A stretch of 61,276 nucleotides of DNA, the filler included. It is 5 parts of 5 records of this genome, joined end to end, with 100 filler letters (N's around TTAATTAATTAA, not from the genome) between each part and the next. Parts side by side here need not be neighbours in the genome. Positions count along the whole stretch, not along the records: positions 19,128 to 34,821 come from DRR378314_2249; 4 more parts are not named here. One strand, written 5' to 3'. How positions within the stretch are numbered: position 1 is the first letter of the stretch; every line of letters begins with the position of its first letter. A program made the position numbers and the translations under genes. Under the pieces are notes generated by a model. That model was not told the origin of the DNA, ran no database searches, and saw only the letters and a program-made list of their open reading frames with translations. Of this stretch, positions 18,025-34,921 are shown one piece after another.

Positions 18025-19027
18025 TTAATACGTTCCTTCTTCCAATACGCCATCCGCCGACATCTGCGCATAAAGCAGACCCTCGCGCAGGCCACGGTCC
18101 GCCACACTCAACCGGTCGGTTGGCCAGCAGCGCATCAGCGCTTGCAGGATCGCGGCCCCCGACATGATCAGCGCCGCACGATCCGACCCGATCCGCGGAT
18201 CAGAGCGCCGCCCCGCTGGACCCATCGCCAGATAGGAATGGATCACCTTGTCGATCTGTGCCGATGTCATGCGCAGCCCGTCGATTTTGGTACGGTCATA
18301 GCGGCGTAATCCCAAATGGCTAGCCGCAACTGTCGTGACCGTGCCGGAGGTGCCAACAATCTGGAACCGTTCCTGTGGCTGCGCGGCCTGATAGGGGGTG
18401 AAATCCTGTAGGTTTTCCTCAAAAAACCAGCTCATCAAGGCAAACCGCGCCGCATCGTCATCCACATCAACAAACTGATCGCGCAGGGTGGCCACGCCCA
18501 GAGGTACGGAAATCCAATCGACAACCTTGGCCGCCGGAATATCGGTTTTGGCCTGATGAAACCCGGAATGCAGCCGCATGATGCTTTGCGCACGGTCCTT
18601 TTTCGGCACTTTGGAAATATCGATCCAGACCAGTTCCGTTGATCCGCCGCCAATGTCTACCACCAAGAGGTTTTCGGTCTTGTGATTGACCAGTGGCGCG
18701 CAGGAAATCACCGCCAGCTGCGCCTCTTCCTCGGGTTTGATGATATCAAGCACCAGACCAGTTTCGCGCTGGATCCGGCGCATGAAATCGGCACCGTTCA
18801 AGGCGCGCCGACAAGCTTCGGTGGCAACCAGCCGCATGCGTTTGACCTTATTGCGGCGCAGTTTCTGCTGACATATGCGCAGTGCCTGAATGGTACGCGC
18901 CATGGATCCGCGCGACAAACGCCCGGATTTTTCAAGGCCCGCCCCCAATTGGACGGACTTCGAAAAGCTGTCTACCACGTGAAAACCGCTGCCTTTCGGC
19001 TGGGCGATCAACATGCGGCAGCTATTT
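18025..19027 (-). CDS. ppx: Ppx/GppA phosphatase family protein (5' end cut by contig end)
   Basis: [32 protein letters not shown]. Confidence 0.9.
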
Positions 19028-19127
19028 NNNNNNNNNNNNNNNNNNNNNNNNNNNNNNNNNNNNNNNNNNNNTTAATTAATTAANNNNNNNNNNNNNNNNN
19101 NNNNNNNNNNNNNNNNNNNNNNNNNNN
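19028..19127. other. Artificial contig linker
   Basis: N44-TTAATTAATTAA-N44 (stop codons in all six frames). Confidence 0.98.
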
Positions 19128-19265
19128 CCCCAAACTCAACCCAGGGGCCGGTTTTTTGGTCACTGGAGGTGTTTACGATGAAATGCGAATGCGTCGATCG
19201 GAAGTGCCTGTTCAACCAAAGAGGAACTTCAGCCCATTGGAGCCGCCTTCAGGATATACCTGACG

Positions 19266-20192
19266 TCAGAGCTCCTGCGACCAAGGCGGATTTGCCCCGG
19301 CTCGTGATACGGTAACTGCTGCAACCTTTGCCCCGAATTCCAACGCATCGTGTAGACTGCCTGCCGACAGGGCGCGCAATGCGGATTTGTTCAGATGATC
19401 GGCTTGGTGTAGCGCGGCCAGGACGCCCGCATTAAAGGTATCACCGGCCCCGACAGTGTCGACAACCTCAACCTGTTTGACGGGCACGGAAACCTCTGCC
19501 CCATCGGAAAGATAGCCTGTCGCGCCGTCGCCACCTTTGGTCACGACAACGACAGATGGTCCGGCCTGCAACATCAGTGGGATTTTCTCAGCATGACTTT
19601 CGGGGCCGGGGATGATCCAATCCAGATCCTCGTCAGACACCTTGACTATGTCCGCCTGCGCAATCATGTGGTTCAGGCGCGTGCGATACCGGGTCTGATC
19701 CTTGATGAACCCGGGGCGAATATTGGGGTCCAACATCACGGCGCGATCCGCGCTATGACGATCAAGCAAGGCAGCGTAGGCATCGGCGCAGGGTTCGCAA
19801 GCCAGGCTGATCCCGCCGAAATACAACGCTGATACGCCTGGTAGCTGATCCGGCATGTCTTCGGGCCGGAGCATTCGTCCTGCCGAGTTCTCATCCATGA
19901 AGCTGTATGTGGCGTGCCCGTCTTTCAGTTGCACGAAAGCAAGCGTGGTTGGGCGGTCCGAGCGGATAACGTGGGTGGTCGCCACATGGCTAATCTGCAA
20001 AGCAGAGATCAGCTGTTCCCCGAACATATCTGTAGACACACCTGACAACAGCCCTGTCTGTATGCCAAGTCGCCCCAATGCAATCGCGGTGTTGAAGATT
20101 GCACCGCCTGAGTGCGGAACAAACCCTTTCCCGCCAGAAACCGTTGGTTCGGCGATCATGTCGATCAAAGCTTCTCCGCAGCACAGGATCAT
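19266..20192 (-). CDS. PfkB family carbohydrate kinase (fructokinase-like)
   Basis: GEALID, GGAIFNTA, DPNIRP, KVSDED, VDTVGAGDTF. Confidence 0.9.
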   Translation of the reverse strand: MILCCGEALIDMIAEPTVSGGKGFVPHSGGAIFNTAIALGRLGIQTGLLSGVSTDMFGEQLISALQISHVATTHVIRSDRPTTLAFVQLKDGHATYSFMDENSAGRMLRPEDMPDQLPGVSALYFGGISLACEPCADAYAALLDRHSADRAVMLDPNIRPGFIKDQTRYRTRLNHMIAQADIVKVSDEDLDWIIPGPESHAEKIPLMLQAGPSVVVVTKGGDGATGYLSDGAEVSVPVKQVEVVDTVGAGDTFNAGVLAALHQADHLNKSALRALSAGSLHDALEFGAKVAAVTVSRAGANPPWSQEL

Positions 20193-20231
20193 CCTGCTTT
20201 CCTTTTGTCTGTCAGAAAACGCATGGTGAGC

Positions 20232-22097
20232 CTACCGTGCGAGCGCATTCTTGCAGAAATTGTTAGCGCCAACAATGCCAAATTCATCCTGTTCCGAGAC
20301 ATACAGATTAAAGTCTCGCCGCAAATCATCGAACCGCCCGCCAGCATTGAAGGCGCGCAAGAAACCTTGCCCAAATAGCCAGCGGTTCTTCTCTGCTACG
20401 CCACCAACGAGAAATACCCCTCCGGTAGGCACAAGTGCGACTGCAAGATCACCCATGATGGCCCCAAGATGTTCGGTAAACATGCGCGCAGCTTTGACAG
20501 CGCATGCGTCCGAGCCGTCTTGTGCGGCCTGAAGAATGTCTTTGGCTGAGCGGGTTGAGGTGTTGGTTTGACCCTCGGTCATTCCAATGGCTTGATAGAG
20601 GATCGGAAGCCCGGTCCCGCTTACAAACATCTCGGCCTCAATTACAAGAGTATCATCAAAAAAACACTCAGGAGCGATCCGACGCGCTGCATTGAAAACT
20701 TCGACCTCATCGAAGTGACGCGGCGACAATCCCATATGGCCACCCTCGCCAGAGACCGTATGAAAGTGGCCTTCGGAATAGAGCAGGGCGCCAACACCCA
20801 GTCCAGTCCCCGGTCCCACAACCAGCCGCGTTCCGAGGGGAGGGGATGCCTCGCCTTGCAGCACTTCAACATTGCCCTCGGTGATCTCGGCCACGGACCA
20901 AGCGGCAGCTGTAAAATCGTTGATTACAAAGGTATGGTGCGCCCCGGTGGCTCGGGCCAGTTCGGTCTCGGACAGGTCCAGATTGGCGTTAGTCAGGCGA
21001 ATGGTGCCATTCTGAACTGGACCAGCGCCAGCCGCAACGACTGCGCGCGGCTCGGTACCGATTTCGTCGCACAGGCTATGTAGCGCATCCTGCAGATCAG
21101 TCGGGGTGCCTGTAGGGTGTTTGCGAAGATCGGTCAGTTCCCCATCGGTCACGACACCCAACCGGGTATTGGTGCCACCGATATCGGCCACCAGGTTCCA
21201 ATGCGCATGAAGCCCCTCTTTGGATCGAACCCATGGGGAGGGCTGATTGCCGCGTTTCAAGGTCACCTGGAGCACTTCAACTGCAGCTGTATTCTCTGAT
21301 TGTATGAATGCCCCTCGGAGAGGAAAGTCGCGAGCGAGAGTTTTTTGAACGGTGTCCAAATAATGGGCTGGGTCTAAATCTGTACCCGTGGCCAAGGTCA
21401 TGAAAAACGGCAGAGCCTCGGTGTCTTCAAGCGCTATGTGCATCAGCGGGTCAAGATCATCGCCCTTTCCGATGGTTACACCGCACCAATCGATCGGTTC
21501 AGCGATTGTGGCAAAATCATCCTGCCAATTCCCGGGTAGATGAATTTCCAATCGATCCAGCAACAGCTCGGGGTATCGCTTGTTAAAGGTCACTTCAGTC
21601 ATCACAGGGTCTGGCAGCATAATCTCGGCACCCAGATTGGTCATCCCATAGCTCCGCATTGCTTGGCGTGCAGAGCCTTGGGCAAGAGTTTGATGATGCA
21701 GGCTGCGCGCTTCGGTACGTGGATCACCGGGTTGCTCGGTGGACAGGCCTGATGTTGAGATGTTGAATATGCGATCCCCGGCTCGGGCGACGATCGCTTC
21801 GGCAAATTGCGCAAAATAATCGGCCATCTCCCGATTGCGCCAACCCCCGATGTCGCTCAGCGCCGGGGGAAGCTCGGCGTGATCTAGCAAAACGCACGGT
21901 CGTAGATCATGCGCCAGAACTTGATCAATCCGTTTCTCGAAGCGATCCAAGGCATCCGCATCGGTCGCGCGCCCGTCGGGCAGGATATCAATCCAACGGA
22001 CCGAAAAACGAGACATGTCTAACCCGGTTGCCAAATCGGTGGGGCCTACCGCACCAAAAAGGAACCCCTTGGGAAAGTCTGAACGGGTGTAATTCAT
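20232..22097 (-). CDS. Fusion of a degenerate GH1 beta-glucosidase-like domain and glucokinase
   Basis: N-terminus 'SDFPKGFLFG..RFSVRW..GGWRNRE..GDR' lacks NEP and ENG; C-terminus has ADIGGTNTR, INDF, GPGTGLG, EGGH. Confidence 0.85.
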   Translation of the reverse strand: MNYTRSDFPKGFLFGAVGPTDLATGLDMSRFSVRWIDILPDGRATDADALDRFEKRIDQVLAHDLRPCVLLDHAELPPALSDIGGWRNREMADYFAQFAEAIVARAGDRIFNISTSGLSTEQPGDPRTEARSLHHQTLAQGSARQAMRSYGMTNLGAEIMLPDPVMTEVTFNKRYPELLLDRLEIHLPGNWQDDFATIAEPIDWCGVTIGKGDDLDPLMHIALEDTEALPFFMTLATGTDLDPAHYLDTVQKTLARDFPLRGAFIQSENTAAVEVLQVTLKRGNQPSPWVRSKEGLHAHWNLVADIGGTNTRLGVVTDGELTDLRKHPTGTPTDLQDALHSLCDEIGTEPRAVVAAGAGPVQNGTIRLTNANLDLSETELARATGAHHTFVINDFTAAAWSVAEITEGNVEVLQGEASPPLGTRLVVGPGTGLGVGALLYSEGHFHTVSGEGGHMGLSPRHFDEVEVFNAARRIAPECFFDDTLVIEAEMFVSGTGLPILYQAIGMTEGQTNTSTRSAKDILQAAQDGSDACAVKAARMFTEHLGAIMGDLAVALVPTGGVFLVGGVAEKNRWLFGQGFLRAFNAGGRFDDLRRDFNLYVSEQDEFGIVGANNFCKNALAR

Positions 22098-22165
22098 TGT
22101 AGCAACCTGTTGGAGCTATGACCTGCGTCACGCCATCTATCAGGTTATGTTAGCGGTATCTAGAT

Positions 22166-24079
22166 TTACGATTGCTCAGGGTTGCGCTTTCTAAATTGAA
22201 CGTCACAGCCTTCAATCTGCAGGTCATCCCAGTCTATTGGATGTGCATTGTAATTTATTAACACCTCATGTGACCGTGTTTCGCGCCGCCGTAGTCCTGT
22301 AGGCATCGGGTGAAGCGTCAGGCCAGTTTTCTGAGCGGCCATGGCAATGACCCGATCCCAAAGAACCTCATCCGGGAAACCCGGCAGATACCAAAGTCGT
22401 TCTTCGCCTTGCAACGCCGGCGTACCATCGGCGAATGACAGCAAGCTTCGGGCTGTGCCTGACATGCGTTCGACCCAGTGTTCCACACTGCCGCCTCCGT
22501 CGACTGTACGGGCCACGCCGGGTGGAAGGGTTTCGATCAGGTCAACATGGCAGCTCAACCCTCCAAGACCGGGGCGCCCCTGTTGAGGGATCTGAAAGTC
22601 TTCAGTGATTGCACCACAGCGCGGCCCCAGCAATGCCAGATCACAGCCGTGCAACAGCCGCTGCTCAAGATCACCCAATGCAGCCACGCCCGGCGTCAGA
22701 ATCAGGTTGTAGTGATCCTCGCCGACTCTGGTAGGTGGAACAAAATCCACTGATAACCCGGCACGTCGCAGCGCGCGATAGGCTGAGAATACGAGCTTGA
22801 AGTAATCGAAACCTGCGCCCTGAGGTTGCCCTGCCCACGCCCAATCTGACGCATAGTCGAATACTATCGCTACGGGCGCACGCGCGGCTTGAATCTCACC
22901 CAACGCCGCCAAGTCATCGGCGGTCTGGCGCGCCTCGGCCAAGCCGGGTGCGTCATGACCATCAGGGGTCAATAGCCCGGCATGCATTTGTTCTTGCCCG
23001 AAAGGTGCCTGCCGCCAGCGGAAATAGTTGACCACTTCGGCCCCATGCGCCACGGCTTCAAGCGACCAAAGGCGCACCATTCCGGGCAGGGGGGCTGGAT
23101 TGTAGGGTGCCCAGTTCACCGGGCCGGGCTGCTGTTCCATCACCCACCAGCGGCCATGGCCGACAGCGCGGTACAGATCATGATGAAAGGCCTGCATGTC
23201 AGGATCACCCTGCTTCAGATACGCGGTTTTGTGCGCCTCATCCGCCTCCAGCCGATCTGACAGGAAACCGATCGGGTAACTGTCCCACGTGGCGATATCC
23301 AGATCATCTCCAACATCAAAATGATCGAAATCCAGTACGCGGCCCATGTAGTTGTGCAGCAAAGGGACATCCGTCAGGGGCCGCAACACATCGACCTGAG
23401 CTTTGTTGAACGCCACCACCTGATCCGAGCTGAATCGTCGAAACGCCAGGACATGCGCCGGGTTGGGTTCGGTCACGGTCAGGTTCGGAAACTCTATCTG
23501 ATCGAAGCTGTTGTACTCCATCGACCAGAACACATTACCCCACGCGGCGTTCAGTGCCTCAATCGATCCGTAGCGATCCGAAAGCCAGCGACGAAACGCC
23601 TTTAGAGCTGCATCGCTATAGCTGAGCGTCGTGTCATGACATCCATATTCATTGTCGATCTGCCATGCGGCGATATGCGGGTTGTGGCCATAGCGTCGAC
23701 CCATAAGCTGTGCGATGCGCTTGCATTCGTCGACATAGCCGGGATGGCTAAAACAATAATGTCGGCGCGAGCCAAATTTACGTGGATTACCATAGGCATC
23801 AACAGCCAGCATCTCGGGAAGCTTGTCCAACATCCAACGCGGTGGCGTTGCGGTCGGGGTGCCCAACACAATCTTCAAGCCAGCAGAGCCTAAGGCCTCA
23901 ATCGCGCGATCCAACCAGTCAAATTGCAGATCGCCCGGCGTGGGCTCCATCCAGCTCCAGGCAAACTCTCCGATCCGCACCCATGTCAGGCCGGTCTCGA
24001 TCATGCGCGCTGCGTCCTTGGCCCAATTCTCTTCGGGCCAGTGTTCGGGGTAATAACAGACGCCAAGTTCTGCCTTCAT
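22166..24079 (-). CDS. Beta-galactosidase, GH42
   Basis: GVCYYPEHW, GEFAW, WQIDNEYG (acid/base), MEQQPG (nucleophile). Confidence 0.93.
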   Translation of the reverse strand: MKAELGVCYYPEHWPEENWAKDAARMIETGLTWVRIGEFAWSWMEPTPGDLQFDWLDRAIEALGSAGLKIVLGTPTATPPRWMLDKLPEMLAVDAYGNPRKFGSRRHYCFSHPGYVDECKRIAQLMGRRYGHNPHIAAWQIDNEYGCHDTTLSYSDAALKAFRRWLSDRYGSIEALNAAWGNVFWSMEYNSFDQIEFPNLTVTEPNPAHVLAFRRFSSDQVVAFNKAQVDVLRPLTDVPLLHNYMGRVLDFDHFDVGDDLDIATWDSYPIGFLSDRLEADEAHKTAYLKQGDPDMQAFHHDLYRAVGHGRWWVMEQQPGPVNWAPYNPAPLPGMVRLWSLEAVAHGAEVVNYFRWRQAPFGQEQMHAGLLTPDGHDAPGLAEARQTADDLAALGEIQAARAPVAIVFDYASDWAWAGQPQGAGFDYFKLVFSAYRALRRAGLSVDFVPPTRVGEDHYNLILTPGVAALGDLEQRLLHGCDLALLGPRCGAITEDFQIPQQGRPGLGGLSCHVDLIETLPPGVARTVDGGGSVEHWVERMSGTARSLLSFADGTPALQGEERLWYLPGFPDEVLWDRVIAMAAQKTGLTLHPMPTGLRRRETRSHEVLINYNAHPIDWDDLQIEGCDVQFRKRNPEQS

Positions 24080-24936
24080 AGGATAACTCTGTGCTCCGCC
24101 TGACCTTGCCCGACATCTGACGCGGCGAAGGTCATACCGTTTGTTGGGGTTTGTATTAACGCGTCCGTCTCCAGCCCCTGTCGGGCGGTGGTGCAGAACA
24201 GTGTGGTCAGATCATTACCGCCAAAGCTTGGACAAGAGGTGTGTTCTGCGTCGAAACCGACGGTTTTCAGGAATTGACCGCCCGGGGAATAAGCAGCAAC
24301 CCGGCTGGCCCCCCATTGGGCGATCCAGATATTACCGCCGCGATCAACAACCGCTCCGTCCGGGTTCAGACCTTCATTCTTTAGATCGAGGAATACAGCA
24401 GCGTCCCCAATGGGCCAGCCTGTTTCGGCGTCTAGCTCCCAGCGCATGACCTGTCCGGTGACGGTATCACTGTAGTAGGCACAGGAGCTATCTGGTGCAA
24501 AGCAGATCGCGTTTGTGATGGTTACGTCTCGTACCAATGGCCGCAGTTCGCCTTTCCAAAAGCGATAGATTGATCCGGCCCCAGCTTCCGCCTGTTTGCC
24601 CATGGTGCCAATCCAGAACCCGCCCCAAGGATCGGCGCGGCCATCGTTGGATCGGGTCACAGGATTGTCGGCCTCAAGCGGGACAATCAGGTCTTTGGTG
24701 TGGCTTGTCAGCCCAAAGCGCCAAAGGCCGGTCTCTGATGCGATCATTAGCGTGTCGTGGTCAACCCATCCGGCGGTGGAGACATGTTCGTTGAATTCCC
24801 ACACCTGTGGTTTATCTTTTTTTCGGGACATCAGGCGTTTGCCGATGATGTCGAACCAGAAAAGCTGCTTTCGCTCAGGGTGCCACAATGGCCCCTCGCC
24901 AAGTTCGCAGGGGCGGTCATCGTAAACGTGACTCAT
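24076..24936 (-). CDS. SMP-30/gluconolactonase family lactonase (probable galactonolactonase)
   Basis: LGEGPLW, RSNDG, PDG motifs; position in dgo cluster. Confidence 0.88.
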   Translation of the reverse strand: MSHVYDDRPCELGEGPLWHPERKQLFWFDIIGKRLMSRKKDKPQVWEFNEHVSTAGWVDHDTLMIASETGLWRFGLTSHTKDLIVPLEADNPVTRSNDGRADPWGGFWIGTMGKQAEAGAGSIYRFWKGELRPLVRDVTITNAICFAPDSSCAYYSDTVTGQVMRWELDAETGWPIGDAAVFLDLKNEGLNPDGAVVDRGGNIWIAQWGASRVAAYSPGGQFLKTVGFDAEHTSCPSFGGNDLTTLFCTTARQGLETDALIQTPTNGMTFAASDVGQGQAEHRVIL

Positions 24937-25538
24937 CTGACAGCCTCGTCGAAAGCAGTCACAATCTGCTGGGCACGATCCGATATTTCATCAACCGTCA
25001 TGCCCGGCTTGAAAATCGCTGATCCGATCCCGAAGCCATCAGCGCTTGCCTTGATCCATTGATCGAAATTCTCAGGGCCTGCACCACCTACCGCATAGAC
25101 CTGAGTGCCCGGTGGCAGAATGGCGCGCATCGCAGCCAACCCTGCGGTTCCGGCCATCGATCCGGGGAACAGTTTCAGCCCTGTGGCCCCGGCCTGTAAT
25201 GCGCTGAAGGCTTCGGTTGGGGTGAAAACACCGGGCCAGCTTTGCACTTCAAGCGCAACGGATCGCCGGATTACGGGCACATCGCAGTTTGGCGAAACGA
25301 TCAGTTTTCCACCTACATTTGCAACCGCTTCAACCTGATCGGTGGTCAGCACAGTACCAGCTCCGACAAGCGCCCGATCCCCGATCTCTGAGACGAGGAT
25401 ACGGATGCTTTCCAACGGATCAGGAGAGTTCAGTGGTACTTCGATCCGGTCTATGCCCGCTTGCACCAGAGCGTGCCCGACCGGCTTTGCCTCATCGGGT
25501 GTCAACCCGCGCAGGATGGCGATAATGGGACGGCTCAT
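24933..25538 (-). CDS. dgoA: 2-dehydro-3-deoxy-6-phosphogalactonate aldolase
   Basis: IAILRG, IEVPLNSPDP, GAGTV, LKLFP, YAVGG. Confidence 0.93.
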   Translation of the reverse strand: MSRPIIAILRGLTPDEAKPVGHALVQAGIDRIEVPLNSPDPLESIRILVSEIGDRALVGAGTVLTTDQVEAVANVGGKLIVSPNCDVPVIRRSVALEVQSWPGVFTPTEAFSALQAGATGLKLFPGSMAGTAGLAAMRAILPPGTQVYAVGGAGPENFDQWIKASADGFGIGSAIFKPGMTVDEISDRAQQIVTAFDEAVR

Positions 25539-26428
25539 GCTGTTTGCCTCGTCAATGTTCTGGCTTGTGCCAGCCCCGCAATAGTTGTGGCGGTGGCGTC
25601 TGCAGTCTCAACCAGCGCGCCTTGTAGCTGCAGAGCGGTCGCGTAGGCATTGGATAAGCCCTCTGAGCCGATGACAGCCAATTGCTGACCCAACCAATAG
25701 GGCCGCGATGCGGAAAGTTCTGCACCGATCAAGAGCCCTGAAAGCCGGGCGCGCGCGATGCTTTTGTTCTGACCATGTAGCAAATCTGCGGCACGCAACC
25801 CAAAGAGTCGTGCTGCAAGTTGTTCAGGCTTCGACAGCGTATCGGATACGGCATCGGCAAAACTCGCGTCATCCCATCCGTCGTCGATGGAATGACGTAG
25901 AACGGATTGCCCCCGCAGCAGGTCAAACATCTCACCGGTCATAAAGGTGCGGAAACTGACGACCTCACCTGCACTGATCTGCGCCCATTTCGTATGAGTG
26001 CCGGGCAGACAAATGACACCATCCCAATTCTGATGCGTACTGAGAAAACCCGCGATCTGCGTTTCTTCACCGCGCATTACATCGGGCGGGTTATTCTGCT
26101 TGAGCCCCGGCACCACGAAGGCCCGAATGCGTGGATCAGTATTTGGAACACGGAACGGCACAACTGGGATTGGCTCGGACGGCACGGCTGAATACGGGGC
26201 CTCGACCCAACCCTGCCGTGCACCAACCATTCCGCAGGCGATCACGTCTACTGGTTTCCCGGGCAGCCAATCTTCGATTAAAGCCAGCAGCGCGGCCTGG
26301 AAATCGCCACCCGCTGTGCGCGACATGCCATCCTGCGACGCGGTCTGGGTCAGAACGCTTTCGCCTTGCATGGCCCAGGCCCGCAAATGAGATGTTCCCC
26401 AATCGACCGCGATCCACTCGACATTCAT
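25535..26428 (-). CDS. dgoK: 2-dehydro-3-deoxygalactonokinase
   Basis: DWGTSHLRAW, DVMRGEETQ, PGTHTKW, TFMTGE. Confidence 0.95.
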   Translation of the reverse strand: MNVEWIAVDWGTSHLRAWAMQGESVLTQTASQDGMSRTAGGDFQAALLALIEDWLPGKPVDVIACGMVGARQGWVEAPYSAVPSEPIPVVPFRVPNTDPRIRAFVVPGLKQNNPPDVMRGEETQIAGFLSTHQNWDGVICLPGTHTKWAQISAGEVVSFRTFMTGEMFDLLRGQSVLRHSIDDGWDDASFADAVSDTLSKPEQLAARLFGLRAADLLHGQNKSIARARLSGLLIGAELSASRPYWLGQQLAVIGSEGLSNAYATALQLQGALVETADATATTIAGLAQARTLTRQTA

Positions 26429-26432
26429 AGCG

Positions 26433-27200
26433 TCACCCCGTTGTCACCACGCCACCATCGACGACCATACATTGACCCGTCATTGCGCGGCTGGCATCCG
26501 AAGCCAAAAATAGGGTTGGTGCGATCATGTCTTCGGGTGTCAAATGCTCTTTCAGGCATTGGCGGTCCAGATGCGCGGCCAAATCTTCTGGCGTGGCCCA
26601 CATATCCAGCTGTTTCTGCGTCAGTACCCATCCCGGTGCCAACGCGTTGACGCGGATTCTTTGTGGCCCAAGCTCGCGCGCCAAAGAGCGTGTCATGCCG
26701 GTGATCGCCGCATTCGAACTGGTGTAGATCGGATAACCCGCATTCCCCATCAAGTAGCTGATCGAACTGAAATTGATGATCGAACCACCTTTGTCCTTCA
26801 TCAGGCGCGCAGCTTCCTGACAGGCAAAGTAATAGGCCTTGAGGTTCACCTCGATCATCCAGTCCCAGAAGTCGGGCGTGGTTTCTTCCAGCGAGTGGCG
26901 TTTGTCATTGGCTGCGTTGTTGACCAGCACATTCAGTGGGCCGTGGGCTTCGGCTGCTTTAGCCATGGTGGCATGCAACAGCTCAGTGTCCGTCATGTCA
27001 CCCTGCAAGAACAAGGGCGCGCGGCCATGTTTATCGCGCATCTGGTCAACAAAAGCACTGGCATCGGACCGGCCGATAAAGGCGACATTGGCGCCTTGTC
27101 CCATGAAGCCGTCAGTCAGAGCTGCGCCAACTCCTGATCCGCCGCCTGTAATATATACTGACGCGCCGCGCATGTCGTGAAATGTTGCAGGTTGATCCAT
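26433..27200 (-). CDS. SDR family sugar dehydrogenase (probable galactose 1-dehydrogenase)
   Basis: TGGGSGVG, NNAANDKRH, YTSSN (YxxxK with K replaced by N); position in dgo cluster. Confidence 0.78.
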   Translation of the reverse strand: MDQPATFHDMRGASVYITGGGSGVGAALTDGFMGQGANVAFIGRSDASAFVDQMRDKHGRAPLFLQGDMTDTELLHATMAKAAEAHGPLNVLVNNAANDKRHSLEETTPDFWDWMIEVNLKAYYFACQEAARLMKDKGGSIINFSSISYLMGNAGYPIYTSSNAAITGMTRSLARELGPQRIRVNALAPGWVLTQKQLDMWATPEDLAAHLDRQCLKEHLTPEDMIAPTLFLASDASRAMTGQCMVVDGGVVTTG

Positions 27201-28909
27201 CAGTGGCTCTCTCTCGTCACAAGGCGCGTGTCTTTACCGACAAGGAAATCAAGATCAGCACCGCGATCAGCCTGCAGCACATGGTCGATATAAAGTTTTG
27301 CATAACCGCGCGTGTAATGCGGATCGTCCGGTTGCCACAGTGTTCGGCGGGCGTCCAGTTCCTTTTCGTCGACCAGCAGTTCCAGTTCGCCATTGCTGGC
27401 GGACACACGAATGCGGTCGCCGGTTTTCACCAAGGCCAATGTGCCACCGGCCTGAGCCTCGGGGCTGACATGCAGAACGACTGTTCCGAAGGCGGTTCCA
27501 GACATACGCGCGTCTGAAATTCTGATCATATCGCGTACACCCTCCTTCACCAGCTTGGCGGGGATGGGCATGTTGCCAACCTCGGGCATGCCCGGATATC
27601 CCTTGGGGCCACAGCCTTTGAGGACCAGAATGGTGTCAGGTGTCACTGGCAGATCGTCGCGGTCGATATTGGCTTTCAGGTCTTCGATATTTTCGAAAAC
27701 GTAAGCTTCGGCTTCGGTCTCTAACAACGCGTCGGTAGCGGCCGAGGGCTTAACAATGGCCCCGTTGGGTGCAAGGTTCCCGCGCAAGACACGCAGGCCC
27801 GCGGCAGGTTTTACCGGGTCATCAAAGGGTCGGATTACATCCGGATTATAGCACTCGGCACCTTCGAAATGGGCTGATATGTCCTTGTTCAATACCGTTT
27901 TTGCCGGACGCAGAAAGGGTTTTAGTTCGGACAGAACCACTGGTACACCGCCTGCATAACAGAAATCCTCCATCAGGTATTTGCCCGAAGGCATGCAGTT
28001 CACCAGCAGGGGAATCTCGGACCCGATTTCAAAATCTTTCAACGTCAGATCAATGCCCACACGACCCGCGAGCGCGAGAAGATGGATGACGGCATTGGTC
28101 GACCCACCAACGGCGGCGTTTGCAAGGATGGCATTTTCGAACGCTTGTTTTGTCAGAATATCCGAGGGCTTAAGATCCTCATCCACCATCTCGACAATCC
28201 GTTTGCCCGTCAAATGTGCCAGCGCCATGCGGCGGGCATCAACAGCGGGCAGAGCGGCGTTGGTGGGCAAGCTCATTCCCATCGCTTCAACCAGCGAGGC
28301 CATAGTGCTGGCAGTACCCATCGTCATGCAAACCCCAGCGCTACGCGACATACCGGATTCAGCATTCATGAAATCCTGCAAGGTCATTTCCCCTGCTCGG
28401 ACAGCTTCCGAAAACTTCCAGACGTCAGTGCCCGAACCGATATCCTGCCCCCGGTATTTACCATTCAGCATCGGGCCCGAGCTGACGACGATTGATGGAA
28501 GATCAACCGAAGCTGCACCCATCAACTGACCCGGAGTTGTCTTGTCACATCCGCCCAGAAGGACGACGCCGTCAATGCCATAAGCGCGAATGGACTCTTC
28601 AACATCCATTGCCAAAAGGTTGCGGAACAGCATGGCGGTGGGCTTCATTTGTGTCTCACCCAGGCTCATCACCGGGAATTCAACCGGGAAGCCGCCAGCC
28701 TCCCAAACGCCACGCTTGACGCCTTCGGCCAGATCACGAAGACCCGAATTGCACGGTGTCAGTTCTGACCATGTGTTGCAGATGCCAATGACGGGCCGCC
28801 CGTCAAAAGCGTGGTCTGGAAAGCCCTGATTTTTCATCCAGGATCGGTGGATGAAACCGTCTTTATCGAGTTTCCCGTACCAATGCTGTGAACGGCGTTT
28901 CTTTGTCAT
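27200..28909 (-). CDS. IlvD/Edd family sugar-acid dehydratase (probable galactonate dehydratase)
   Basis: PCN, GCDKTTPG, CMTMGTA, GGSTN, SDARMSGT. Confidence 0.88.
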   Translation of the reverse strand: MTKKRRSQHWYGKLDKDGFIHRSWMKNQGFPDHAFDGRPVIGICNTWSELTPCNSGLRDLAEGVKRGVWEAGGFPVEFPVMSLGETQMKPTAMLFRNLLAMDVEESIRAYGIDGVVLLGGCDKTTPGQLMGAASVDLPSIVVSSGPMLNGKYRGQDIGSGTDVWKFSEAVRAGEMTLQDFMNAESGMSRSAGVCMTMGTASTMASLVEAMGMSLPTNAALPAVDARRMALAHLTGKRIVEMVDEDLKPSDILTKQAFENAILANAAVGGSTNAVIHLLALAGRVGIDLTLKDFEIGSEIPLLVNCMPSGKYLMEDFCYAGGVPVVLSELKPFLRPAKTVLNKDISAHFEGAECYNPDVIRPFDDPVKPAAGLRVLRGNLAPNGAIVKPSAATDALLETEAEAYVFENIEDLKANIDRDDLPVTPDTILVLKGCGPKGYPGMPEVGNMPIPAKLVKEGVRDMIRISDARMSGTAFGTVVLHVSPEAQAGGTLALVKTGDRIRVSASNGELELLVDEKELDARRTLWQPDDPHYTRGYAKLYIDHVLQADRGADLDFLVGKDTRLVTRESH

Positions 28910-28966
28910 TTTGGCTCTGCGTTTCTGGCTGGTGTTGGAATTGAGTTCTTTATGAACAGACTAAAA

Positions 28967-30307
28967 TTAGGCCGCCCGGGCGGATTGGCACCAGTCGGGT
29001 AGCCAGTCACCATGGGCGGATAGCAGATCGGTCACAAGGTTTCGAATTTGCCGAAGGTCCAGCTCGGCTGCGGTATGTGGGTCCATCATGGCGGCGTGAT
29101 AGATGTATTCAGGATTTTCTTCCGTCAGCGCGCGAACCGTCAGCTCTTGCACATTGATCTGCGTTCGCATCAAGGCAATCAGTTGAGGTGGGATTTCCGT
29201 GACCACCGAGGGTTGGACACCGTTTGCATCGATCAAGCACGGGGTTTCAACCGCAGCGCCCAAAGGTAGCTGGGGAATCTGACCTGTATTTGGCAGATTG
29301 CCATAGGCGGAATAAGGCGTGTCTGTGACGATTGCGTTCATCAGATCGGCAGCAAATTCGTGGCTGCGGTTTACCTCAATGTTACGGCCATCGGTCAGAG
29401 TTTTGGCTTGTTCCTTCCAGTTAGCAACCTGTTCCACACAGCGGCTTGGATATTCGTCCAGCGGGATGCTGAACTGTTCGATCAGGTCGTGGCGCCCCTC
29501 TTTGATAAACCAAGGCACATATTCTGCAAAATGTTCGGAACTTTCAGTGCAGAAGAACCCAAGATGATCCATCACCTCGTACCGAACCTTGTTTGGACAG
29601 CGCGGCATCAGCAGCGGTGGCTTCGGGAGGTATCCCGCGCGGAAACCTTGGCGCAATGCGGGATAAAGATCGCGACCCTCGTATTCGAGCTTAAGGAAAA
29701 AGGCGACGTGGTTTATTCCGGCGACTTTATAGCGAATGTTATCCTTGGACAGGTCAAGATCATGCGACAGTTCTTCAACCGTGTTCTGGACGGAATGGCA
29801 TAGACCCACGTGATTTAACGTGGGAAAGCGCGCGGCCAGGGCCCAGGTGTTGATGGCCATGGGATTCACATATTGCAAAAGCGTCGCATTGGGGCACAGC
29901 TGCATCATGTCCTGCGCAACACCCCACAGGACCGGCACGGTGCGCAAACCCCGCATGATGCCGCCGACACCCAGCGTATCTGCGATTGTCTGGCGCAGGC
30001 CGTATTGCTTTGGAATTTCAAAATCCGTCACTGTGCAAGGCTCGTACCCACCAACCTGAAAGGCAGTGATTACGAAATCCGCTCCGTCGAGCGCAGCGCG
30101 ACGATCAGTGTGGGTCGATACGGTTGCACCTGTACCTACAGAGCGGATCATGGCTTTGGCTACGGCCTCGCTTTCGGCCAAGCGTACCGGATCAATGTCC
30201 ATCAACGCAAAATGACTGTCCGCCAGGGCGGGGGTGAGCAGGGCATCGCCCACGATATTTTGCATGAAAATCGTGGAACCCGCACCAACAAAGGTGATCT
30301 TGGTCAT
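28967..30307 (-). CDS. melA: NAD+-dependent alpha-galactosidase, GH4
   Basis: GAGSTIF, QTIADT, YVNPM, GLCHSV, AGINH, TESSEHFAEY. Confidence 0.92.
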   Translation of the reverse strand: MTKITFVGAGSTIFMQNIVGDALLTPALADSHFALMDIDPVRLAESEAVAKAMIRSVGTGATVSTHTDRRAALDGADFVITAFQVGGYEPCTVTDFEIPKQYGLRQTIADTLGVGGIMRGLRTVPVLWGVAQDMMQLCPNATLLQYVNPMAINTWALAARFPTLNHVGLCHSVQNTVEELSHDLDLSKDNIRYKVAGINHVAFFLKLEYEGRDLYPALRQGFRAGYLPKPPLLMPRCPNKVRYEVMDHLGFFCTESSEHFAEYVPWFIKEGRHDLIEQFSIPLDEYPSRCVEQVANWKEQAKTLTDGRNIEVNRSHEFAADLMNAIVTDTPYSAYGNLPNTGQIPQLPLGAAVETPCLIDANGVQPSVVTEIPPQLIALMRTQINVQELTVRALTEENPEYIYHAAMMDPHTAAELDLRQIRNLVTDLLSAHGDWLPDWCQSARAA

Positions 30308-30329
30308 GAGACAAACCTCTGGTTTGACG

Positions 30330-31178
30330 TTATTTTACAGCACCGAGGGTCAGGCCCGCGATGAAGTGTTTTTGCATCAGGAAGAACATGGCAACCGGCG
30401 GCAAGGCCGCCACGATGGAACCGGCACTCATCAGCTGGTAGGCGGCGCGGAACTGCGCGTTGAAGCTGGTGATACCGGCGGTCACTGGCTGGCTTTCAGC
30501 CCCTTGGGTCAGGACAACGGCCCAGAAATAATCGTTCCAGATGAAAGTGAAGATCAATACGCTGAGTGCAGCGATTGCGGGCTTCATGAGTGGTAGGACC
30601 ACATACCAGAAAATCCGCCATTCGCTGATGCCTTCAACCCGTGCAGCCTCGATCAGTTCAAAGGGCAGAGCGCGGATGAAGTTGCGCATGAACAGCGTGC
30701 AGAAACCCGTCTGAAACGCGATGTGGAACAAGACCAGCCCGGTTTTGGTATTGTATAGACCCAATTGCAGGGTCAGGTCGCGTACCGGAACCATCAGGAT
30801 CTGGAAGGGCACGAAGTTGCCCGCCACAAACATGAAGAAAATCCAAAGGTTCGATTTGAACTTGTAGATTCCCAACGCGAACCCGGTCATGCAGCTGAGC
30901 GCCACGGCTCCGATCACGGTTGGAACTGTGATCAGGAACGAATTCAGCAGATAGCGCGGCATGTCCGAGTTAAAAAAGACTTGCCCGTAGTTGAACGCGC
31001 CCTCAAAGCTGGATGGCATTCCCCAGTAATTCGCATTGGTGAAGTCGGCAGCAGGTTTGACCGAAAACAGCGCAACTGCCAGCAAGGGGCCAAGCCATAA
31101 AAGCAAGGCCAGTGGCAGCATCGCCTGATAGGTAATCTGGGCAGCGCGGGGTTGTTTTTCGATGGGTTTGGGAAACAT
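30330..31178 (-). CDS. Carbohydrate ABC transporter permease
   Basis: EAA loop 'ELIEAARVEG', FIWNDYFW, QKHFIAGLTLGAVK. Confidence 0.93.
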   Translation of the reverse strand: MFPKPIEKQPRAAQITYQAMLPLALLLWLGPLLAVALFSVKPAADFTNANYWGMPSSFEGAFNYGQVFFNSDMPRYLLNSFLITVPTVIGAVALSCMTGFALGIYKFKSNLWIFFMFVAGNFVPFQILMVPVRDLTLQLGLYNTKTGLVLFHIAFQTGFCTLFMRNFIRALPFELIEAARVEGISEWRIFWYVVLPLMKPAIAALSVLIFTFIWNDYFWAVVLTQGAESQPVTAGITSFNAQFRAAYQLMSAGSIVAALPPVAMFFLMQKHFIAGLTLGAVK

Positions 31179-31179
31179 C

Positions 31180-32106
31180 TTAGTGCCCCTTCTCTTCGCG
31201 GTACATCGACCAGAGGAAATAGGCGATGAAGCAGAGCATGATGAGGAACAGGATCACCGCAATGGCTGCTCCGTAACCCATGCGGAAACCGTATTCGGAC
31301 AAGGCGACCTCGAACATGTAATAGGCCAGCACGCGGGATGATCCAAACGGTCCACCTTGTGTCATGATCGAAATAAGGTCGAAGCTACGTAGCGCGCCAA
31401 TGATGGTCACGACGAAGGCGATGAACGTTGCAGGGCGCAGTTGCGGCAGAATGATGTGCCACAGCATCCGCCAGCTTTTAGCCCCGTCCAGACGTCCGGC
31501 CTCGATCTGTTCGGGGTCCACAGCGTTCAGGCCAGTCAGATACAGGATCATGCAATAAGCGGTTTGTGGCCAGAGGCCAGCGAAGATGATGCCATATGTC
31601 ACGAACCGTTCGTCGCCCAGCACGTTCAGCGGGCCGAGGCCAAAGAACCCGAGGAATTCGTTCAGTAGGCCGAAAGTTGGATCGTAAAACCACGTAAAGA
31701 CAAGGCCAACGACGACCTGAGAGATGACGAATGGAAAGAAGAACAAAGACTTATACAGGCGGATGCCCCAAACCGTCTGGTTCAGGAATAGCGCGATGAA
31801 CAGTCCCGCAGGGATTGCGGCCAGATACAGGATCAGCCAGATCAGGTTGTTTTTGAGGGAAATATAGAACGCATCCCGGTCGTACAATTCCCAATAGAGG
31901 TCCTCGTAGTTGCGAAAGCCAACATATTCTGCCGCCCCCAAGCCGTCCCATTCATAGAGGGACAGGTTGAAGGACTGAAATACGGGGATGATCACATAAA
32001 CCATGAAAAAGAGCAGGCCGGGGGCCAGGAACAACCACGGCGCGATGCGCTGTTGATTTCTATGGAACCAGCTTTCTTGTTCTGGGGCGTCAACGGCTGC
32101 GGTCAT
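31180..32106 (-). CDS. Carbohydrate ABC transporter permease
   Basis: VGFRNY, 'EAGRLDGA', LRSFD. Confidence 0.93.
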   Translation of the reverse strand: MTAAVDAPEQESWFHRNQQRIAPWLFLAPGLLFFMVYVIIPVFQSFNLSLYEWDGLGAAEYVGFRNYEDLYWELYDRDAFYISLKNNLIWLILYLAAIPAGLFIALFLNQTVWGIRLYKSLFFFPFVISQVVVGLVFTWFYDPTFGLLNEFLGFFGLGPLNVLGDERFVTYGIIFAGLWPQTAYCMILYLTGLNAVDPEQIEAGRLDGAKSWRMLWHIILPQLRPATFIAFVVTIIGALRSFDLISIMTQGGPFGSSRVLAYYMFEVALSEYGFRMGYGAAIAVILFLIMLCFIAYFLWSMYREEKGH

Positions 32107-32133
32107 GGAACATCTCGGGTCTGGTGGGGGTAA

Positions 32134-32190
32134 GGCAGGTTGATGCCCGCCCTACAATTGAGGGTGACGTAGGCCGGGCTAAAGCCCGGC
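32134..32190. repeat. Pair of GTAG-type REP-like palindromes
   Basis: Plus strand GTAG-GCCGGGCT-AA-AGCCCGGC (32169-32190); minus strand GTAG-GGCGGG-CATCAA-CCTGCC (32155-32134). Confidence 0.6.
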
Positions 32191-32200
32191 CCATGCCAAA

Positions 32201-33460
32201 TCAGTTGTCGTAGATGCGCTGGCGCGCACGCTCCAGCTTGGCCAGAATACGGTCAGCGTTGTCCGGCTTGACCATGAATTCCTGGAAGCCCTCCATTGAT
32301 GCCTTGGCCATTTCTGCCGGTGCGTCACGGTCCCAGAACTGAGCAACACCGCCGGGGCTGTTGGACGACAGCATGGCAAAGCCCTGCTGCAGGAACTTGT
32401 CCTCATCCACCGCAGACTGCGCGTTCACCGGCAATTGGCCGAGGTTTGCGCCGTTGTTGATTTCGGTCTGTTCGTCTGCGGATACTGCGAAACGCAGGAA
32501 CTCACGAGCGGCTTCCTTGTTCGAGGCATTGGCCGGGATGTGGAACGTATCCGTCGGCGCGTCTTCTGCCAATTCGACATCAGGGTTGATGGCAACAAAC
32601 TGGTAGAAGTCGATTTGGTCATCGCTCAGACCGGCTTCGCGCAGCGGTGCCACGGCGAAGTTGCCCATCAGATAGGCCGCCGCTTCACCGTTGACCATAA
32701 AGGGCAGCGCTTCTTGCCAGCTATAGGTCTGGTGGTTGTCGATGAACGCGCCCATGTCGATCAACTGCTTCCAGTTGGCGAACGTCTGCTTAACCCGGTC
32801 GTCCTCCCAACTGATTTCACCATTGGCGAGCTGGTTGTGGAAATCGAACCCATTTGTGCGCATGTTCAGGTAGTCAAACCAGCCACCGGCAGTCCACAGA
32901 AACTTTGTGCCGATGGTATAGCATGCGCGGCCTGAATCGACGATCTTCTGGCAGTTGGCCAGCTCTTCTTCCCAAGTGGTGGGCTCGGTCAGGCCCAGCT
33001 CGTCAAAGATGTCTTTACGGTAGTAAACACCCCACTGGTAGTAGGTGTAAGGTACACCCCATTGCTTGCCGTCTATGGTCATCGCGCCTTTGGTGGATGC
33101 CAGATTATCGGCGATTTCGGGCTCGGCCCATAGGTCCGACACGTCTTCGAACAGACCCGCCTCGACATACGGCTTCATCCGGTTGGCGGCGTACCATGTC
33201 GCAACGTCCGGTGTGTCCGCCGTCAGAAAGTTGCGGATCTGGGTCTTATAGGCCTCACGGTCGATCACCGTGGTTTCGATTTCCAACCCGGGGTGCTCGG
33301 CCGCGAACCGCTCGATCATCGCTTCCATCGTCGCGCGCGGCGCCGGGTTGGATGTATCGAGGAAGATTCGTAACTCGCCGGTCAGCTCAGCCGCAACTGG
33401 CGCAGCAAGTGCAACACTGGCGGCCAACGCGGCCGCGGTGTGCTTGAACATGGAATGCAT
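32201..33460 (-). CDS. Carbohydrate ABC transporter substrate-binding protein
   Basis: Start MHSMFK with GGAGG RBS, signal peptide, SBP_bac_1 pattern 'DGKQWGVP..YYRKDIF..PTTWEE'. Confidence 0.92.
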   Translation of the reverse strand: MHSMFKHTAAALAASVALAAPVAAELTGELRIFLDTSNPAPRATMEAMIERFAAEHPGLEIETTVIDREAYKTQIRNFLTADTPDVATWYAANRMKPYVEAGLFEDVSDLWAEPEIADNLASTKGAMTIDGKQWGVPYTYYQWGVYYRKDIFDELGLTEPTTWEEELANCQKIVDSGRACYTIGTKFLWTAGGWFDYLNMRTNGFDFHNQLANGEISWEDDRVKQTFANWKQLIDMGAFIDNHQTYSWQEALPFMVNGEAAAYLMGNFAVAPLREAGLSDDQIDFYQFVAINPDVELAEDAPTDTFHIPANASNKEAAREFLRFAVSADEQTEINNGANLGQLPVNAQSAVDEDKFLQQGFAMLSSNSPGGVAQFWDRDAPAEMAKASMEGFQEFMVKPDNADRILAKLERARQRIYDN

Positions 33461-33486
33461 AGTTTCCTCCCTTAAGCTTCCATATT

Positions 33487-33527
33487 GGTTCCATTTATTG
33501 AAACCTAGTTTTATATATTGAAAACTA
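33487..33527. promoter_or_regulatory. Two adjacent palindromic operators, probably bound by the IclR regulator
   Basis: GGTTCCATTTATTGAAACC and TAGTTTTATATATTGAAAACTA in the divergent promoter region; shared core TATTGAAA. Confidence 0.6.
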
Positions 33528-33600
33528 CACATCGACTCGGCTAGTCTTGTCAAGACCCTCGTGCCCAAGGTCGGGGGAAAGTGGAGGAGAACAGGCACCC

Positions 33601-34395
33601 GTGGCAGGTGACGGAACAATAGGAAAAGCATGTGATGTGCTGGAACAGGTCGCAGCGTTCGAGCGGCCAGTGCGGTTTGGGGAGTTGCTGGAAAGCAGTG
33701 CGTTCCCCAAGGCGACGCTGTATCGATTTCTGCAATCGCTGACCAATCAAGGCATGCTGCATTATGAACCGGAACGGCAAACGTATTCGCCGGGGATGCG
33801 ATTGGTGCGGTTGGCGCATTCCGCATGGACGCAAAGCTCACTAGCGCCGATCGCGCGCCCCTATCTGGACGCGCTCAGCCAAGAGACCGGGGAAACCGTT
33901 CATCTGGCGCAGCTTGATTCCGGACAGGTGCTTTACGTGGACAAACGCAATGCGCAACGACCGATCGAGATGTACTCAGAGGCCGGCAAGGTTGGCCCGG
34001 CCTATTGTACCGGTGTCGGCAAGGCGATGATGGCCTATCTGGACGAAGCGCAACTGGAAAAGACAATCTCACAACAGAGTTTTCATCGGTTCACCGACAA
34101 GACGCTGACCTCGGGCAAGGCGTTACGGGCTGATATCGAACTGATCCGCAACCGGGGGTACGCGGTGGATGATGAAGAGCATGAGCCCGGTATCATCTGC
34201 ATCGCCTGTCCGATCCTGACCACTGGGGGCCGCATGTTGGGTGCACTTTCGGTGACAGGATCGACCGGACGAATGGATTTCGAGCAGTTAGAAACCTGGG
34301 TGCCCCGTGTTCGGCGCGTAGCAGAGCAGATCGGCACAAAAGCACAGGCATGGCGGTTCCCTGAGGACCAACAAAATAGGATGCAAGCAACATGA
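33601..34395 (+). CDS. IclR family transcriptional regulator
   Basis: HTH '[12 protein letters not shown]', [32 protein letters not shown] start after GGAGGAG. Confidence 0.92.
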
Positions 34396-34821: not shown

Positions 34822-34921
34822 NNNNNNNNNNNNNNNNNNNNNNNNNNNNNNNNNNNNNNNNNNNNTTAATTAATTAANNNNNNNNNNNNNNNNNNNNNNN
34901 NNNNNNNNNNNNNNNNNNNNN
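34822..34921. other. Artificial contig linker
   Basis: N44-TTAATTAATTAA-N44. Confidence 0.98.

Follow-up and report, generated by a model that had tools for sequence, protein, structure and literature searches.

Catalytically dead domains persist in multi-enzyme fusions with active partners, as does the dihydroorotase-like domain of yeast Ura2, which belongs to a family unrelated to glycoside hydrolase family 1 (GH1) but offers an analogy for a structural spacer or scaffold. Within GH1, the nearest functional precedent is alpha-Klotho, whose KL1 and KL2 domains are described as triose-phosphate isomerase (TIM) barrels of the GH1 type that each lack one catalytic glutamate and serve as a scaffold or co-receptor (PMC11696049). 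Here we describe a gene in which a GH1-derived remnant is fused in frame to a glucokinase. It lies in a window of 61,276 nucleotides, by which we mean the whole stretch of DNA analysed; this stretch consists of parts joined by 100-letter fillers, where adjacent parts need not be neighbours in the genome. The gene is found in the part at positions 19,128-34,821, which is DRR378314_2249.

Alpha-Klotho shares with the window remnant a GH1-type barrel that lacks a catalytic glutamate. It has full-size barrels with a cavity and the loss of one glutamate per domain, whereas the window remnant lacks both glutamates as well as the loops of the catalytic face. Moreover, alpha-Klotho is a eukaryotic membrane co-receptor without a kinase fusion, and shared descent exists only via the GH1 family. 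Glk of Escherichia coli differs from the window kinase in being a free-standing protein of ~320 aa. The intact GH1-glucokinase fusions of Ruegeria offer a further comparison, examples being L029 (R. atlantica CECT 4292), P0117 ('Beta-glucosidase A') and P0133 ('beta-galactosidase/glucokinase', JGI). The window gene is like them in lineage, in domain order and in the PfkB gene downstream, with kinase halves that are ~75-80% identical (plasmid-borne examples). It is unlike them in having lost ~150 GH1 residues together with the catalytic motifs, in having no adjacent LacI or ATP-binding cassette (ABC) transporter genes, and in the ~4x faster non-synonymous evolution of its GH1 part. At the level of listings and abstracts, neither the window protein nor any intact or decayed fusion of GH1 with glucokinase was met in a paper, and the intact fusion itself appears uncharacterised. 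The N-terminal half of the window protein is best read as a real, conserved and selectively maintained remnant, the vestige of a bifunctional enzyme and no newly invented module.

A single open reading frame (ORF) of 621 aa plus stop occupies 20232..22097 on the minus strand. It starts with ATG and encodes the remnant, a linker and the glucokinase in one frame:

21228..22097, minus strand: GH1-derived pseudo-enzyme domain, aa 1-290 (from Pfam, the motif table, the deletion map, AlphaFold, Foldseek and omega)
21204..21227, minus strand: linker WVRSKEGL, aa 291-298 (residues 291-300 form the block of lowest pLDDT of the region, 63)
20232..21203, minus strand: glucokinase domain, aa 299-621 plus stop (from PF02685, the Glk alignment, Foldseek and an omega of 0.058)

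An initial annotation of the window had proposed that a GH1-derived domain devoid of its catalytic machinery precedes, in the same frame, an intact glucokinase, and this layout is borne out by Pfam, NCBIfam and the motif alignment. All the peptides quoted there (SDFPKGFLFG, RFSVRW, LDHAELP, GGWRNRE, GDR, HHQTLAQG, LPGNWQDDF...IDWCG, LPFFMT and LRGAFIQS) were recovered in the translation. The first residue of WNLVADIGG, W300, maps to nt 21200 as claimed; the strand, minus, had not been given.

The Pfam Glyco_hydro_1 match (PF00232) is confined to residues 25-115, covering profile positions 71-162 of 453 with 62.5 bits against a cut-off of 22.6, and the NCBIfam model for GH1 beta-glucosidases, TIGR03356, aligns with residues 24-153. 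In the alignment with intact GH1 enzymes, the acid/base motif NEPW falls on GL-- in the window protein and the nucleophile motif TENG reads TLAT. The YQIEG, DHYHR and DNYEW segments are deleted, NYYT reads TIGK, and YHWELP has changed to DHAELP, the His of YHW being the only pocket residue kept. YQxEG, YHW, NYY and DNxEW are the glycone-binding motifs of GH1. Altogether, the GH1 half is ~150 residues shorter on its catalytic face. No test of catalytic GH1 membership gave a positive result for the N-terminal half, and listing it among the glycoside hydrolases would be wrong. Judged by its sequence, aa 1-290 is a pseudo-enzyme domain, a GH1 homologue without catalytic residues, in which the canonical sugar pocket is destroyed. 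It is scarcely credible that the domain is still an enzyme whose catalytic residues have moved or been replaced by others. Migration of catalytic residues has been described for pseudo-enzymes in general (PMC10211241), and the retained His would suit such a reading, but the absence of both Glu motifs, the deletion of YQIEG and DNYEW, the replacement of NYY and the missing residues of the catalytic face all speak against it.

The kinase half matches Pfam Glucokinase (PF02685) over nearly its full length (residues 302-616, profile 1-312 of 314, 218.6 bits), and its residues 300-617 align end to end with the E. coli Glk structures 1q18/1sz2 (phmmer, E 9e-31; ~28% identity). The stretches ADIGGTN, VINDF, GTGLG, GEGGH and EAEMFVSGTGL match the corresponding stretches of E. 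coli Glk (DxGGTN, INDF, GTGLG, EGGH and AE..SG.GL). DxGGTN is the phosphate-binding motif of this enzyme, while the NDF, EGGH and AE stretches bind glucose. At the NCBIfam equivalog level the kinase half fell short of the cut-offs, with 185.6 against 333 bits for the best model, NF001415, and 159.9 against 225.45 bits for TIGR00749. For this reason the kinase is assigned at family level, with a putative substrate specificity. It looks like a functional member of the Glk-type glucokinase family that presumably phosphorylates glucose.

Relatives of the window gene were collected in a scan of one genome per species, which gave 68 loci, L001-L060 being of the Ruegeria type; L047, cut by a contig end, was left out. 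The match falls in one uninterrupted ORF in each usable Ruegeria-type locus. The intact class, comprising 36 of the 60 Ruegeria loci, consists of single ORFs of 774-777 aa with YQIEG, NEPW, NYYT, TENG and DNYEW; YHWELP is replaced by YHWEMP in one of them, and the DHxxR motif is variable. The decayed class is made up of 21 loci and the window, with lengths of 597-720 aa. NEPW is present in none of these 22 forms and both glutamates never occur together, while some motifs survive in part (xENG in L009, L011, L042 and L046, and a Glu at the NEP position in L010). Two further loci, L021 and L055, encode only the kinase behind a leader of 30-40 aa, in a gene context like that of the window. P0001/L001 is a near-identical protein with 99% identity to that of the window. 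As read from accession prefixes, no assembly gave two fusion loci. In complete genomes the locus lies on large plasmid-type replicons, with an intact fusion in B32, THAF33 and AD91A and a decayed one in R. conchae M340 and SCSIO 43209. One decayed form on a contig of a metagenome-assembled genome (L008, 6001-7791) additionally lacks 30 residues towards the C-terminal end of its kinase (738-767 in L029); its ORF stops before the tblastn match ends, and the kinase may be damaged or the assembly faulty.

Protein searches gave a similar distribution. A word-indexed search with residues 1-300 returned 13 fusion clusters of 611-732 aa, all named ones from Ruegeria, and the next-ranked matches were stand-alone GH1 enzymes with 30-39% identity. 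A search centred on the junction (L029 residues 380-520) returned ~28 intact and ~38 decayed clusters, with names such as 'Beta-glucosidase A', 'family 1 glycosylhydrolase', 'glucokinase' and 'beta-galactosidase/glucokinase'. The fusion is thus not unique to this assembly, and related fusions occur across the Ruegeria loci. Nor is its architecture the unprecedented design that the initial annotation took it for: the window gene originated from an intact bifunctional GH1-glucokinase, of which it is a decayed state, and the intact state is the commoner one in Ruegeria (36/60 loci).

The window remnant carries seven in-frame deletions, which in the numbering of L029 cover residues 21-68, 169-181, 229-248, 298-323, 328-333, 359-368 and 394-420. 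In the AlphaFold model of L029, deletions begin directly after the barrel strands beta-1 (13-17), beta-4 (161-165), beta-5 (217-228), beta-6 (288-299), beta-7 (347-350) and beta-8 (386-391), which corresponds to the catalytic face, and the first of them takes most of helix alpha-1. Only 2 strand residues are lost to the deletions of the window, compared with a mean of 19.6 for random placement of the same segments (P = 0.004); for nine further decayed forms the same test gave P = 0.01-0.12. In decayed forms the gaps fall in the same six regions across different gene contexts, though with different limits. Intact forms are almost free of insertions and deletions. The deletion map, the AlphaFold models and the placement test therefore agree with the earlier proposal that deletions are centred on loops of the active-site face while the barrel strands are retained.

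The AlphaFold model of the window protein has a mean predicted local distance difference test score (pLDDT) of 82.2 and a predicted TM-score (pTM) of 0.66; it was built from a 57-row alignment that included intact GH1 sequences, which may inflate the confidence in the barrel. Residues 13-281 form eight strands alternating with helices, with a block pLDDT of 73-93. Searching with this model, Foldseek recovered E. coli Glk (1sz2) with a target TM-score of 0.83 and GH1 beta-glucosidases with 0.50-0.54, at a probability of 1.00. The remnant is accordingly predicted to keep the (beta/alpha)8 barrel fold. The models of the window protein and of L029 are not independent evidence, because the L029 segments modelled with low confidence are those at which the decayed rows have gaps. 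Docking of the remnant (1-290) against the kinase (296-621), run without controls, gave a score of 0.00, which counts neither for nor against contact between the two.

To quantify selection, codon models (GY+F3X4) were fitted to gap-free columns, a restriction that biases omega downward. The following values were obtained:

Window subgroup (WIN, L002-L007 and L015), 8 sequences: GH1 part, 281 codons, omega 0.228; kinase omega 0.058
Second decayed group, 10 sequences, some branches of which may pre-date the decay: GH1 part, 304 codons, omega 0.231; kinase omega 0.063
Intact fusions, 12 sequences: GH1 part, 450 codons, omega 0.055; kinase omega 0.064

Constraint on the remnant is thus relaxed about 4-fold relative to intact GH1 domains, yet it is clearly non-neutral. 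Pairwise Nei-Gojobori estimates gave 0.029-0.082 over 19 pairs for intact GH1 domains and 0.147-0.637 over 24 decayed or mixed pairs, 23 of them with a confidence interval. Among close pairs that could be aligned unambiguously, L011-L046 gave 0.38 [0.26-0.57] and L035-L054 gave 0.22 [0.14-0.35]. Within the window subgroup of eight members, 57 of the 290 remnant positions are invariant, including the whole N-terminal strand RSDFPxGFLFG. By thirds of the remnant, omega is 0.21, 0.18 and 0.26. A near-neutral tail at residues 206-298 had been considered as well and was rejected, its omega being 0.26 against 0.21 and 0.18.

These data bear on the idea that the remnant is in neutral decay and has merely not been deleted so far, with only the frame and the absence of stop codons under selection. 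Such decay would be in keeping with the lost catalytic motifs, the range of lengths (597-720 aa), the complete loss in two lineages and the two closest pairs, the only ones whose intervals reach 1 (L046-L049, 0.62 [0.26-1.37]; WIN-L001, 0.64 [0.00-1.57]). We nevertheless regard it as extremely unlikely. Fixing omega at 1 for the remnant costs a 2dlnL (twice the difference in log-likelihood) of 446 in the window subgroup and of 590 in the second decayed group, so that neutrality is rejected in both; the other 21 decayed or mixed pairs with an interval have upper bounds <=0.57; the deletions avoid strands; and the 57 positions remain invariant although synonymous divergence (dS) is saturated. 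The initial annotation was right, then, in holding that the remnant does not drift neutrally.

A further question is whether the remnant is translated at all. If the GH1 part were an untranslated pseudogene, the kinase alone would be made from an internal start and the long ORF would be accidental. Support for this comes from the intact fusions: the codon at -11 from GGTN, the expected start site of a free-standing glk, is ATG in 21 of the 36 and GTG or TTG in 9 more. For two intact fusions on plasmids, the database calls begin at an internal start. On plasmid NZ_CP081107.1 of B32 (L070, 6642-8969), a continuous GH1-glucokinase ORF of 775 aa is represented in the RefSeq-derived gene table only by a 348-aa 'ROK family protein', and THAF33 (L071) shows the same pattern with a 352-aa entry; as the PLSDB gene table omits pseudogenes, the GH1 part may carry a pseudogene flag in the original records of both. 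In the window subgroup (WIN/L001 and L002-L006), on the other hand, the codon at -11 is a non-start Leu, and no ATG, GTG or TTG was found in L002, L005, L006 and L015 among the 27 codons scanned (-30 to -4 from GGTN). Across the GH1 parts of the 22 decayed forms, the alignment has 41 distinct gaps of >=4 aa, all of them keep the frame and every ORF is open, which would be unexpected of untranslated DNA, and an omega of 0.23 with neutrality rejected is equally hard to reconcile with a pseudogene. The pseudogene explanation is therefore very unlikely.

The kinase of the window subgroup, having no usable start of its own, would be made only from the GH1 start codon; the remnant would then still be translated, and we infer that the fusion is produced as one polypeptide. 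The initial annotation had stated that there is no nearby in-frame start. This does not hold literally, since an ATG exists at aa 233, TTG codons at aa 235, 247 and 280, and GTG codons at aa 275, 278 and 303. What stands is that no Shine-Dalgarno sequence of the GGAG/AGGA type was seen upstream of aa 233-280 when the upstream sequence was read by eye. The GTG at aa 303 has a weak GGA match upstream, and a start there would cut into the kinase core. The misnaming of fusions, and the splitting of intact ones by automated annotation, mean that surveys of carbohydrate-active enzymes and carbon use both over-count and under-count the beta-glucosidases of Ruegeria.

We consider it probable that the remnant is a vestigial pseudo-enzyme domain which is kept foldable, as the kinase is made only within this polypeptide. 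The gene derives from the bifunctional beta-glucosidase (GH1)-glucokinase gene of Ruegeria, and in this lineage the locus has lost the neighbouring LacI regulator and sugar ABC-transporter genes, the fusion now closing a putative galactoside-utilisation operon after a GH42 beta-galactosidase. The GH1 half has lost both catalytic glutamates with nearly all sugar-binding residues, and in-frame deletions on the catalytic face have pared it to a predicted barrel of ~290 aa. The intact kinase may take glucose from the neighbouring glycosidases, with the downstream PfkB handling a second hexose. Frame maintenance alone leaves an omega of 0.23 unexplained, which points to selection for a compact, foldable N-terminal domain. 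As the reason for this constraint we infer that a misfolded N-terminus of 290 aa would take the kinase down too, and moderate purifying selection on the remnant could be understood in this way. The remnant would then be a foldable passenger or scaffold and no enzyme.

It is also possible, though in our view doubtful, that the trimmed barrel is a selected non-catalytic module on which the kinase depends, whether as an oligomerisation scaffold, as an allosteric or regulatory domain or by docking to glycosidases. Purifying selection that is uniform across the remnant (omega 0.18-0.26), the invariant positions of the window subgroup, the retention of eight strands with removal of the catalytic loops, and the trimming of similar segments in forms from different gene contexts would all be expected of such a module. 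The kinase of L055 (5893-6969) would also fit, as a compensatory change after loss of the domain: it is 67% identical to that of the window, compared with 71-79% for the neighbouring GH42, PfkB and lactonase, it has a long tree branch of 0.48, and its difference from the neighbours is -8 points, compared with +0.8 to +11.2 in eight other loci. The kinase of L021, the other locus without a remnant, is not unusual in this comparison, so that compensation appears in one of two cases and is a weak hint. Since L021 and L055 lack the remnant in the operon context of the window, the remnant is dispensable at least there, and L021 lies inside the kinase clade of the window (support 97). The roughly 4-fold weaker constraint than on the intact domain and the variable length of the remnant between lineages also argue against a module, and the loss of the sugar pocket argues against ligand sensing at that site. 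For the selected non-catalytic role put forward by the initial annotation, purifying selection is what has been confirmed; an allosteric, oligomerising or docking role is unsupported, and a foldable passenger explains the data at least equally well.

The reading of the remnant as a foldable vestige has several observations weighing against it, apart from the composition of the alignment behind the barrel model. Conservation in the window subgroup is not focused on strands, with a mean pairwise identity of 0.457 in strands, 0.444 in helices and 0.475 elsewhere (P = 0.50), so that the simplest prediction of pure fold maintenance is unmet. The even omega of 0.23, together with a stable 287-315 aligned codons across pairs in which dS is saturated (dS 1-3), exceeds what a mere passenger might need. 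Furthermore, an approximately unbiased (AU) test, applied after the tree had been seen to a group set by motif state and leaving out L055 and L008, rejects a single clade of all decayed forms with L021 (p-AU 0.0047). Finally, the tree of the N-terminal domain and the shared upstream element described below seem to fit one origin of decay, while the kinase tree does not.

The trees themselves are as follows. On the kinase-domain tree, the well-supported branches require two or more changes of state, and parsimony gives 7. In the tree of the N-terminal domain, all intact forms lie on one side of a branch with a support of 93, and the decayed rows are long-branched. Recombination between the two halves would reconcile the two trees. 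A possible trigger of the decay is suggested by the stand-alone GH1 genes of the genus, of which ~25 clusters were found (435-441 aa, 79-89% identical to P0170, all named ones Ruegeria). The GH1 tree unites seven stand-alone Ruegeria enzymes with the GH1 domains of the 36 fusions in a single clade apart from 17 enzymes of other genera (support 99), with the stand-alone P0198 and P0168 nested among the fused forms. P0170 is named for strain ANG-R, which carries the decayed L005. The presence of these enzymes fits a duplication or replacement, followed by complementary loss, as the trigger. No second GH1 gene outside the fusion was found in the window or in the 60 loci.

In the genus as a whole, every stage by which a bifunctional enzyme loses one of its halves is represented: intact fusions, an intact fusion whose locus is rearranged (L027), forms trimmed in part (693-720 aa), the minimal barrel (~611-638 aa in total) and complete loss (L021 and L055). 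Selection can be measured for each stage and tied to the loss of regulator and transporter genes, and the persistence of dead domains can thereby be tested directly in terms of folding burden, entrenchment or new function. Tentatively, the remnant might be a naturally minimised (beta/alpha)8 barrel, a bacterial GH1 pseudo-enzyme kept for a real non-catalytic job in assembly, stability or regulation. If so, Ruegeria would provide a natural series for the entrenchment of dead domains and for the limits to which a TIM barrel can be pared. Being predicted to fold despite the absence of ~150 loop residues and one helix, the barrel would also be a useful template for minimal TIM-barrel design.

The change of state is accompanied by a change of gene context. 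Intact fusions are preceded at a distance of 3 nt by a LacI-family gene and stand opposite a divergent operon that encodes a solute-binding protein and two permeases and in B32 additionally holds an alpha-glucosidase and a UgpC-type ATPase; this operon looks like an alpha-glucoside uptake cluster. The LacI and solute-binding protein genes are adjacent in 35 of 36 intact forms and in 0 of 22 decayed ones. Nine decayed forms, including that of the window, and both stand-alone kinase loci stand directly after a GH42 beta-galactosidase and a lactonase; another nine stand beside a divergent xylose-isomerase-like TIM-barrel gene plus another LacI gene, and the remaining four have none of these markers. 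PfkB is found downstream in 34/36 intact forms, in all 22 decayed forms and in both stand-alone loci. The intact fusion of L027 (6001-8322; 774 aa, all motifs) lies in the xylose-isomerase-like/LacI neighbourhood that is otherwise confined to decayed forms, and may represent a transitional state with rearrangement before decay.

In the window, the fusion has the following surroundings:

22145..22160, minus strand: conserved 16-nt element GATACCGCTAACATAA, within the 68 nt that separate GH42 from the start of the fusion
22166..24079, minus strand: GH42 beta-galactosidase, upstream neighbour (Pfam Glyco_hydro_42, 495 bits)
19266..20192, minus strand: PfkB-family sugar kinase (fructokinase-like), downstream neighbour (Pfam and NCBIfam)

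Together with PfkB, the fusion closes a run of genes on the same strand that encode, in order from the upstream end, an AraC/DJ-1 regulator, a solute-binding protein, two permeases, GH4, an IlvD/Edd dehydratase, an SDR, DgoK, DgoA, a lactonase and GH42. The run upstream of the fusion (24076-35941, minus strand) corresponds to the use of galactosides via the De Ley-Doudoroff route, with an alpha-galactosidase-like GH4, as judged from the annotation of R. conchae homologues; the filler at 34822-34921 falls within these limits, and the upstream end of the cluster comes from another of the joined parts. The GH42 homologue is annotated as 'beta-galactosidase' in the R. conchae plasmid NZ_CP081104.1. 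From this context, a plausible substrate of the kinase is glucose set free from galactosides, for example lactose or melibiose. PfkB is followed by a D-lyxose/mannose isomerase gene in most loci; this gene is missing there in the window, L001-L003, L005, L006 and L055, and the R. conchae plasmid has an unrelated ABC transporter at this position.

The 16-nt element, GATA[AC]CGCTAACATAA, precedes the start by 60-160 nt in the window, in both loci with the kinase alone and in 11 of 21 decayed loci, which come from two contexts; its carriers besides the window are L001-L006, L008, L015, L035, L042, L054, L021 and L055, at ~5850-5940. Counted within 2 mismatches, it is present in 0/36 intact loci. 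It fits TGnnAnCGnTnnCA, which we take to be the pattern of LacI-family operators, and a LacI-type regulator whose gene lies elsewhere may still control the operon. A promoter and terminator scan of 19000-22400 gave 2 promoter-like and 2 terminator-like sites, no more than in shuffled sequences, with no sigma-70 site in the gap between GH42 and the fusion. Paired runs of 44 N with 12 bases between them were seen at 19028-19071/19084-19127 (the positions between the parts with the PfkB and Ppx/GppA genes among them), 34822-34865/34878-34921, 44253-44296/44309-44352 and 53597-53640/53653-53696; they occupy the positions of the 100-letter fillers between joined parts and do not belong to the genome.

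The search beyond Ruegeria found GH1 domains joined to other partners. Among the best 150 of 27,722 matches in a representative library of 1.84 billion proteins, GH1 plus glucokinase occurred only in P0158, a decayed form of the Ruegeria type. Thirteen other long proteins picked by eye had GH1 joined to LacI, PfkB, mannose-6-phosphate isomerase, GH5, a glycosyltransferase, AraC or a second GH1. In the same library, P0330 (803 aa), P0377 (802 aa), P0429 (747 aa), P0457 (768 aa) and P0467 (589 aa) are GH1 fusions, the types represented being LacI-GH1, GH1-LacI, PfkB-GH1, GH1-mannose-6-phosphate isomerase and GH1-AraC. It seems that fusions between GH1 and the products of neighbouring genes in sugar operons have arisen repeatedly. 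The LacI-GH1 order of P0330 parallels the order of the LacI and GH1 genes, 3 nt apart, in the intact Ruegeria loci.

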